Shown in pieces: positions 27,795-27,869 of a stretch of 64,000 nucleotides of DNA. The DNA lies in IMG/VR virus record IMGVR_UViG_3300045988_089196; one strand, 5' to 3'. Made by a program: the position numbers and the translations under genes. The notes beneath the pieces were generated by a model. The model had not been told where the DNA came from. It saw only the letters and a list, made by a program, of their open reading frames with translations, and did no database searches. The stretch is from a virus. The stretch's first letter is position 1, and each line of letters begins with the position of its first letter.

Positions 27795-27869
27795 TGCGGA
27801 GTAGCGTAATGGTTAGCGCAGGGGTCTCTAAAACCTCGGGAGTGGGTTCGAATCCCACCTCCGCTGCCA
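27795..27869 (+). tRNA. amber suppressor tRNA, anticodon CUA (reads UAG), Gln-like identity
   Basis: Anticodon stem GGGGT-CTCTAAA-ACCTC with U33 and A37. T-arm GTGGGTTCGAATCCCAC. D-arm GCGTAATGGTTAGCGC. Weak 1:72 pair (U.U), discriminator G73 and CCA. The D-arm and anticodon stem resemble tRNA-Gln(UUG) at 18893. Confidence 0.8.

Follow-up and report, generated by a model that had tools for sequence, protein, structure and literature searches.

The IMG/VR virus record IMGVR_UViG_3300045988_089196 was analysed over a stretch of 64,000 nucleotides (referred to throughout as the window), in which the amber codon TAG is very probably translated as glutamine by a phage-encoded tRNA with the anticodon CUA, located at 27795-27869, in a partial use of genetic code 15. 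The window is part of a human-gut siphovirus-like phage of ~145 kb, a distant relative of the SPbeta-like, Tsamsa-like and phAss-1-like phages, and 5.5 kb of it are 100% identical to a human-gut contig of 144 kb in ENA. When only TAA and TGA were taken as stops, 72 genes that do not overlap tRNAs were obtained, and 62 in-frame TAG codons were found in 19 of them (26%); recoding is partial and specific to certain classes of genes. The TAG-bearing genes on which the analysis draws are the following.

5591-6304, + strand: uracil-DNA glycosylase (UDG), one TAG at residue 35 (Pfam and solved UDGs)
8015-8962, + strand: repeat-containing nuclease-like protein (DUF2726), 10 TAG, 6 CAA and 1 CAG
10804-11325, + strand: HNH-like protein, 4 TAGs
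21869-26347, + strand: tail-fibre-like genes 21869-22126, 22108-22710, 22728-23792, 23810-24982 and 25010-26347, 10 TAGs in total
47285-48139, + strand: NAGPA-SPOR protein, 2 TAGs (Pfam)
48142-49548, + strand: endolysin (Phage_lysozyme2, Amidase_2 and a weak SLH match), 9 TAG, 13 CAA and 1 CAG
56756-57667, + strand: GIY-YIG endonuclease-like protein, 11 TAG (one within the GIY-YIG domain), 7 CAA and 1 CAG
57948-58574, + strand: ThyX, 3 TAGs (Pfam)
60018-60998, + strand: Sak4-like AAA_24 ATPase, 2 TAGs (Pfam)
61604-63157, + strand: DnaB-like helicase (SPbeta YorI-like), 2 TAGs (Pfam)

Single continuous Pfam matches extend over in-frame TAGs for Phage_lysozyme2, Amidase_2, Thy1, AAA_24, DnaB_C, NAGPA and GIY-YIG. 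The Phage_lysozyme2 profile is covered from 2 to 140 of 140 with six TAGs inside, Thy1 from 11 to 191 of 191 with three and AAA_24 from 2 to 195 of 195 with two. The original prediction, which held that a series of conserved proteins is open only if TAG is a sense codon, is thereby supported for the lysin, ThyX, AAA_24, DnaB_C, NAGPA and GIY-YIG proteins, but less directly for three others that it named: the weak HNH_2 match, at 20.3 bits, falls slightly short of the cut-off, the tail-fibre open reading frames (ORFs) have no Pfam match but are kept in relatives with TAGs at identical positions, and the TAG of the UDG lies just ahead of the Pfam match, yet within the region that can be aligned to solved UDGs. 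Comparison with the relatives gave 81 TAG-TAG pairs, in which the codon is conserved, and the TAG at 24926, in a tail fibre, must be read through because a conserved C-terminal motif comes after it. The real stops are TAA and TGA, as had been claimed: 61 of the 71 complete gene ends are TAA and 10 are TGA, the tag ORF of the phage transfer-messenger RNA (tmRNA; 16376-16691, + strand, ARAGORN) stops at TGA, and read-through of TAG by itself is enough to complete the domain models. Total ORF length was rejected as a test of the reassigned stop, since dropping any stop lengthens ORFs; on the + strand they sum to 14,041 residues under the standard code, 17,805 with TAG read, 16,209 with TGA read and 20,774 with TAA read.

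The amino acid was determined by codon-level DNA comparison with 84 related loci (L001-L004 and L005-L084). Glutamines at the TAG columns of lysin homologues from databases were discarded, because Q is a gene-caller convention there, the standard code failing to yield these proteins from their DNA; public gene calls already render these TAGs as Gln. In the closest relative the codon opposite a window TAG is TAG in 25 cases, CAA in seven and CAG in one, plus scattered singletons, and over all loci, in which 54 window TAG positions can be aligned, the commonest non-TAG residue is Gln. Tabulating the residues opposite TAG, a check suggested beforehand, gave a clear preference: with a substitution model fitted to these alignments (132,888 residue pairs), the log-likelihood over 44 positions amounts to +41.8 nats for Gln, +1.9 for Glu, +1.1 for Lys and -24 or below for the remainder. 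In the reverse comparison, TAGs of the relatives stand opposite CAA of the window 46 times and opposite CAG 22 times. As CAA lies two mutations away from TAG, the CAA counterparts reflect amino-acid selection rather than mutational proximity.

Individual genes were also compared with relatives and with solved, standard-code homologues. TAG positions of the endolysin are occupied by TAG or CAA/CAG in relatives, and the lysin sites that had been quoted as glutamine proved correct, RYV-x-PSD, TTV-x-TMPW, LL-x-FERP and PSD-x-S being CAA or CAG in L003/L004 and INL-x-N being Gln in phi29 gp13, a solved homologue; the solved PlyL amidase likewise has Q opposite TTV-x-TMPW. Position 47765 of the NAGPA-SPOR gene is Gln in eight relatives, as are positions 58020 and 58206 of the ThyX gene in its relatives. 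When residue 87 of ThyX, a TAG, is compared with solved structures, Q is found in four actinobacterial ThyX (in the RHR...S-Q-xSxR motif region) and E in Thermotoga, and at residue 35 of the UDG the solved enzymes have Q in Coxiella and Ser, Val or Arg in three others. Within the window, the internal repeats of ORF 8015-8962 place the TAG of DL-x-G-[TAG]-RFG (DLTG-x-RFG) opposite the Q of the paralogous repeat DLTGQKFG.

The putative decoding tRNA was characterized together with the glutamine tRNAs of the window and the promoter-like sites upstream of it.

27795-27869, + strand: amber suppressor tRNA(CUA), class I, 75 nt, 4-nt variable loop (ARAGORN, Rfam)
18893-18966, + strand: tRNA-Gln(UUG), A1-U72, G73 (ARAGORN and sequence)
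19602-19676, + strand: tRNA-Gln(CUG), A1-U72, G73, anticodon loop CUCUGAA (ARAGORN and sequence)
27322-27350, + strand: putative promoter of the sigma-70/sigma-A type, TTGACA-17 nt-TG-TATAAT, a perfect pattern match (12/12 to the consensus)
27750-27778, + strand: weaker promoter-like site, TTCAAA-17 nt-TATAGT (9/12), a weak indication, ending 17 nt before the suppressor

ARAGORN reports 31 tRNAs and the tmRNA in the window, every one on the + strand between 10087 and 28761, and a single one of them has the anticodon CTA, at 27828-27830; the label 'Pyl' that the program gives it is a consequence of the anticodon only. A tRNA with CUA in a U33/A37 loop had been predicted at this place, and it passes the cloverleaf check in both programs, the general tRNA model of Rfam matching it over its full length with 61.6 bits (gathering threshold 29, E 2.1e-12) and flagging 1:72 as the sole non-standard pair. 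The sequence, TGCGGAGTAGCGTAATGGTTAGCGCAGGGGTCTCTAAAACCTCGGGAGTGGGTTCGAATCCCACCTCCGCTGCCA, has canonical geometry with an anticodon stem of 5 bp, the anticodon loop C-U-CUA-A-A (hence U33, A37 and A38), G10, G73, an encoded CCA and a U1.U72 mismatch. A near-identical suppressor is found in L005-L009 in the corresponding location, flanked by tRNA-Ser(UGA) and tRNA-Leu(CAA), and in relatives that keep it the adjacent DUF2828 protein is only ~80% identical. Among 15 diverse class I homologues of the suppressor, compensatory changes were observed in 16 of the 20 stem pairs, while CTCTAA (the CUCUAA loop) and G73-CCA are invariant. Judged from these comparisons, the suppressor tRNA is a conserved, functional gene.

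The perfect promoter match, TTGACA-17-TGTATAAT, is the only one in the window; it lies ~445 nt upstream of the suppressor, ahead of a small ORF at 27372-27701, and L005 and L007-L009 keep the same promoter 467 nt upstream of the tRNA. The weaker site at 27750-27778 showed no conservation in L005-L009. The promoter suggests that host RNA polymerase transcribes the suppressor, possibly early. Near-consensus sigma-70/sigma-A promoters (at most one mismatch, 17-nt spacers throughout) number 16 on the + strand versus 2 on the - strand, many of those on the + strand falling in the tRNA array at 9047-18201.

We propose that a host enzyme charges the suppressor with Gln, either glutaminyl-tRNA synthetase (GlnRS) or a non-discriminating glutamyl-tRNA synthetase (GluRS) followed by GatCAB, and that the charged suppressor would compete with host release factor 1 (RF1) at UAG. 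The 62 TAGs in 19 genes would then be translated as Gln, with TAA and TGA staying terminators, and full-length products of the TAG genes would be made only once the suppressor is abundant, whereas TAG-free genes would be translatable by the unmodified host machinery. The latter include gyrase, ligase and a 16-kb block of RNA-repair and nicotinamide adenine dinucleotide (NAD) genes directly downstream of the suppressor.

28891-45063, + strand: TAG-free block, 152 Gln codons and 0 TAG

Outside 28891-45063, TAG accounts for 16.6% of Gln codons, and the probability of no TAG inside is ~1e-12. The block encodes DUF2828/DUF7788, a Major Vault Protein (MVP)-like protein, RNA ligase, NAD salvage, YqeY, Thg1, a KTI12-like kinase and Band_7. 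At the other extreme stand the lysin, in which TAG makes up 9 of the 23 Gln codons, the GIY-YIG protein, ORF 8015-8962, the HNH-like protein and ThyX, the genes with the largest TAG share. CAG makes up 15% of CAA+CAG in TAG-bearing genes versus 44% in TAG-free genes (Fisher 2.7e-10), and the combined share of CAG and TAG in TAG-bearing genes is 40%, near the 44% of CAG in the TAG-free ones; from these shares, TAG has mostly taken the place of CAG. The three homing-endonuclease-like genes (56756-57667, 8015-8962 and 10804-11325) have the top share, TAG being 58-67% of their Gln codons, which echoes the recoded intron endonuclease in Borges et al.

The distribution of TAG implies that this arrangement probably gates or times the expression of the lysin, tail fibres and homing endonucleases. 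Two observations speak against a timing role: the consensus host-type promoter upstream of the suppressor suggests early transcription, and the replication genes for DnaB, Sak4, ThyX and UDG contain TAG. The position of the promoter fits an order in which the code is switched on and the TAG genes are then translated, and is no proof of a delay. These same observations favour an alternative in which TAG is still Gln but late-gene timing is not the main purpose, recoding serving instead to sabotage host translation through read-through of host TAGs, an anti-host role of the kind proposed by Yutin et al. (PMC7886860), or following as a neutral outcome from C-to-T pressure on CAG once a suppressor is present; simple CAG-to-TAG drift would predict the observed agreement between CAG+TAG in the recoded genes and CAG in the others. 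We nevertheless regard this alternative as rather unlikely, since drift alone leaves unexplained both the 16-kb block without TAG and the concentration of TAG in the lysin and homing endonucleases, which has been found independently in other clades.

The features of the suppressor itself give a mixed picture of its glutamine identity, and several of them weigh against it. Overall identity to tRNA-Gln(UUG), whose presence at 18893 was confirmed, is 69% and not above that to several other tRNAs, and the nearest-neighbour scores (Ser 0.60, Thr 0.59, Gln 0.56, with tRNA-Ser(UGA) at 27046 as the best neighbour) leave the isotype ambiguous; the resemblance to tRNA-Gln(UUG) on which the original prediction had leaned therefore does not discriminate. 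The Gln-type features that it listed, a weak 1:72 pair, G73 and G10, are all present, but the first two also fit the tRNA-Trp of these phages and G10 is near-universal. C3-G70 and A38 deviate from the Escherichia coli Gln identity set. In addition, we know of no precedent for charging of a CUA anticodon by GluRS/GatCAB, the route required in a host without GlnRS.

The bacterial Gln determinants have been given as G73, U1-A72, G2-C71, G3-C70, G10, U34/U35/G36, A37 and U38 (PMC9976931). The suppressor has G2-C71 and G10, its 3:70 pair is C-G instead of G-C, position 36 is A, as required by CUA, and position 38 is also A, so that the standard tRNA-Gln loop (U35, G36, A37, U38) is not matched. It thus appears to act like an amber-suppressor derivative and not like a standard tRNA-Gln. 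A mismatched 1:72 with G73 occurs in 17 of 20 class I CUA suppressors versus 1 of 44 phage tRNA-Gln (Fisher 1.4e-11, a value that is indicative only, as the counts are of unique CCA-ending tRNAs of these loci and the sequences are related), and an A-U or U-A pair at 1:72 with G73 is found in 39 of the 44 tRNA-Gln. Gln-inserting amber suppressors selected from other tRNAs had changes that destabilise 1:72 (PMC9976931), and Gln was inserted by 28 of 29 phage tRNA-CUA in E. coli extract (PMC12636597, a 2025 preprint); charging with Gln by a host enzyme is hence well precedented. The unpaired U1.U72, together with G73 and U35, would be a likely device by which Gln identity survives the replacement of G36 by A in the anticodon.

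The suppressor and tRNA-Ser(UGA), at 27046-27135, have acceptor-stem positions 2-7 and the whole T arm in common. Derivation of the suppressor from this neighbour was rejected because the tRNA-Ser differs in L005, and the likeness is local, possibly the result of gene conversion. A serine-type (class II) suppressor was also rejected on account of the 75-nt length and 4-nt variable loop. The stand-alone YqeY (similar to the C-terminal tail of GatB, 38775-39224) was considered as a charging helper and rejected; its occurrence, limited to a few relatives, does not follow that of the suppressor.

It is very unlikely that TAG is a sense codon for an amino acid other than Gln, such as Glu, Lys, Trp, Tyr, Ser, Leu or pyrrolysine. 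The 'Pyl' label, the weak 1:72 pair and G73 that are compatible with tRNA-Trp among these phages, the match of acceptor stem and T arm to the adjacent tRNA-Ser(UGA) and the K, E or S found opposite certain TAG positions in relatives could all be read in this way. However, Gln leads the likelihoods with +41.8 (Glu +1.9, Lys +1.1), and CAA is the dominant counterpart codon; the suppressor lacks the long variable arm and so is no substrate for seryl-tRNA synthetase, the Ser-like acceptor similarity is missing in L005, and the canonical geometry, with its end-to-end match to the general tRNA model, is unlike the shape of tRNA-Pyl, no Pyl genes or Pyl-related Pfam matches being found among the ORFs scanned.

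Still less credible is the view that TAG mainly remains a stop, the affected genes being pseudogenes, split genes or products of rare leaky read-through and the tRNA a weak, minor suppressor. TAG is avoided by 74% of the genes and the host presumably has RF1, but genes with 9-11 TAGs (lysin, GIY-YIG) would give practically no product if suppression were inefficient, relatives at 63-97% protein identity keep the TAG positions, and the genes hit include essential functions (lysin, tail fibres, helicase). Repeated assembly of the same phage, one window protein being present in ~1,390 index blocks of the assembly collection, likewise speaks against decay or assembly error. Equally implausible is that the host itself reads TAG as Gln, with the phage matching its host and the tRNA only supplementing the supply: code-matched phage-host pairs are known for code 25, but code-matched phages use the codon in ~90% of genes, TAG is missing here from 53 of the 72 genes and from the block with 152 Gln codons (P ~1e-12), and to our knowledge no bacterial lineage has TAG as Gln.

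The suppressor of the window is a class I tRNA, while some relatives and phAss-1 carry long CUA suppressors of 84-97 nt with an extra arm and a Gln-like acceptor end, and numerous viral contigs of no relation to them have such an arm as well.

L010 8252-8342, L016 3072-3160, L021 2832-2926, L050 4570-4660, L052 6279-6368, L057 6923-7013 and L076 3153-3241: long CUA suppressors
phAss-1 (L086) 12445-12532, - strand: long CUA suppressor
Loci L088-L207: further long CUA suppressors
10087-10181 of the window, + strand: tRNA-Ile(UAU), 95 nt, extra-arm hairpin 10133-10147 with the loop CAGAUUA (10137-10143) centred on GAU

A scan of IMG/VR that left the arm unspecified, combined with the family loci, yielded 41 unique long tRNA(CUA) (40 or 41 depending on how each script parses the arm). 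YUGA is present in the extra arm of 36 of the 41 (35 of 40 under the other parsing), compared with 3 of 52 Leu, 3 of 62 Ser and 4 of 21 Tyr control tRNAs. The extra-arm loops are dominated by the 7-mers CUCUGAA and UUCUGAG, CUUUGAA also occurring, and the anticodon loops of the phages' tRNA-Gln are the same kind of word, with CUCUGAA itself in four. The extra-arm stem positions that flank the loop form pairs in every one of 36 sequences and covary. Two further classes were compared by the same type of motif, as follows.

Long tRNA(CUA): U-YUG-A in 28/40, U-CCA-A in 0/40
Long tRNA(UCA), opal suppressors: U-CCA-A (the Trp anticodon) in 11/17, U-YUG-A in 0/17
Controls, drawn from the same contigs: U-YUG-A in 0/78 Leu, 2/75 Ser and 0/27 Tyr tRNAs; U-CCA-A in none of the Leu, Ser and Tyr tRNAs
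GAU in the extra arm: 63/66 long tRNA-Ile(UAU), against 8/47 Leu, 12/69 Ser and 0/15 Tyr

The opal suppressors with U-CCA-A (L226, L252, L257, L265, L281, L295, L304, L307, L309, L314 and L331) have a Trp-like acceptor end, and the six other long tRNA(UCA) are tRNA-Sec-like or otherwise without the motif. A search for the loop CCAGATTAG before the T loop found 105 tRNAs, 103 of which are tRNA-Ile(UAU), and in an unbiased set of 66 unique long tRNA-Ile(UAU) from IMG/VR, GAU is constant and its flanks are variable. Three classes of tRNA whose decoding anticodon is non-standard thus carry, in the sequence of the extra arm, the anticodon that normally belongs to their amino acid. In genomes with long-arm suppressors the majority residue at TAG positions is Q, E and K at five positions each.

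We tentatively suggest that phage tRNAs with a non-cognate decoding anticodon carry identity-rescue devices, the arm being a retained or mimicked cognate anticodon loop for GlnRS, tryptophanyl- or isoleucyl-tRNA synthetase or a modification enzyme, and U1.U72 playing this part in class I suppressors such as that of the window, which is without such an arm. The arm may alternatively have been left behind when an anticodon arm was duplicated, or be something else, and caution is advised by nematode long-arm tRNAs with UAU that are reported to be charged by leucyl-tRNA synthetase (PMC3333845). No description of a cognate-anticodon extra arm was found in the literature searched. Should the arm prove functional, tRNA identity would gain a new principle, and the engineering of suppressor tRNAs a practical design rule.

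Other tRNAs of the relatives also differ from those of the window. In one relative (L020) a tRNA(UUA) at 1106-1178, a possible ochre suppressor, replaces the CUA tRNA, and ARAGORN calls a 4-base 'taaa' anticodon at L059 3694-3767, L060 3517-3590, L062 4402-4475 and L076 4390-4463. Long-variable-arm tRNA-Cys(GCA) of 80-87 nt with GNRA-type loops occur in relatives (L005 9692-9778, L010 9877-9963, L060 9735-9821 and others); the tRNA-Cys of the window, at 28685-28761, has 77 nt. The TAG-free block contains several RNA-centred genes, namely DUF2828/DUF7788 (28891-30414), RNA ligase (35910-37184), a Thg1-like tRNA-His guanylyltransferase (42781-43626) and a KTI12/AAA_33 kinase (43688-44170), as well as an 811-residue protein (30794-33229) with Major Vault Protein shoulder and repeat domains and the NAD salvage genes for nicotinamidase, a PRPP synthetase-like protein, NAPRTase and NadE.

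With respect to annotation, gene calling under the standard code would break up the lysin, ThyX, the helicase and the tail fibres, among others, so that table 15 is required, which the public protein collection already uses. A very prevalent human-gut lineage thereby joins the partial users of code 15. No terminase was found in the window, and megablast of 25 kb against GenBank phages gave no match. The substitution of TAG for CAG and the near-constant unpaired 1:72 of class I amber suppressors, unlike the phages' tRNA-Gln, go beyond the literature searched.

The phenomenon as such is already described as code 15 of gut phages, Firmicute-infecting ones included (Borges 2021; Babkin 2023), and NCBI taxonomy lists a 'Caudoviricetes code 15 clade'. 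The code-15-like recoding put forward in the original prediction is thus borne out, but its Firmicute-like setting is no novelty (10.1101/2021.08.26.457843, PMC10607447). Compared with E. coli supE and with Gln-inserting suppressors derived from tRNA-Trp, -Ser or -Asn (PMC9976931), the window suppressor has in common CUA with U35, G73 and a weakened 1:72; those suppressors, however, are laboratory or strain-specific and of low efficiency against the standard code, whereas the tRNA of the window is a conserved viral gene that would serve dozens of essential sense TAGs and has a fully mismatched U.U at 1:72. In crAss-like phages (PMC9523058) the same reassignment has been confirmed at the level of peptides by proteomics, and they differ in having Bacteroidota hosts and belonging to an unrelated phage order.

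Further counterparts are the phages of Borges et al. (bioRxiv 10.1101/2021.08.26.457843), who described TAG-to-Gln recoding in phages of standard-code Firmicutes and Bacteroidetes with suppressor tRNAs and partial use, a mean of 26% of genes being recoded in the Sapphire clade and the strongest bias being seen in lysis genes and a homing endonuclease. The window phage resembles them in TAG standing opposite Gln, in the phage tRNA(CUA), in the 26% of genes recoded, with lysin/amidase and homing endonuclease the most recoded, in the predicted standard-code Firmicute hosts and in a genome of ~150 kb. Two of their published points are reproduced here, the preferential recoding of lysin and homing endonucleases and the large standard-code block. 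Unlike in those phages, a 'code change module' of RF2 or synthetase is not seen: the proposed search for an RF2 or glutaminyl-tRNA synthetase gene found no release factor, synthetase or second suppressor in the window and ~8 kb of each flank (~80 kb of the ~145-kb genome).

The phage phAss-1 (OQ749652; Babkin et al., PMC10607447), of the proposed genus Phassvirus, has 136 kb, 36 tRNAs, three Sup-CTA genes and TAG in 28% of its ORFs. It shares with the window phage the human-gut origin, tRNA-Sup-CTA, the absence of a dedicated synthetase, a block of nicotinamidase, PRPP synthetase and NAMPT genes, and ThyX, and it has homologues for 20 of 90 window ORFs at 27-74% identity. In contrast, there is no similarity at the nucleotide level (megablast), and phAss-1 has three suppressors, including an 88-nt one with a long arm, where the window has one class I gene. 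On these sequence comparisons, the window phage does not belong to the proposed genus Phassvirus, and the two phages represent separate genera at least.

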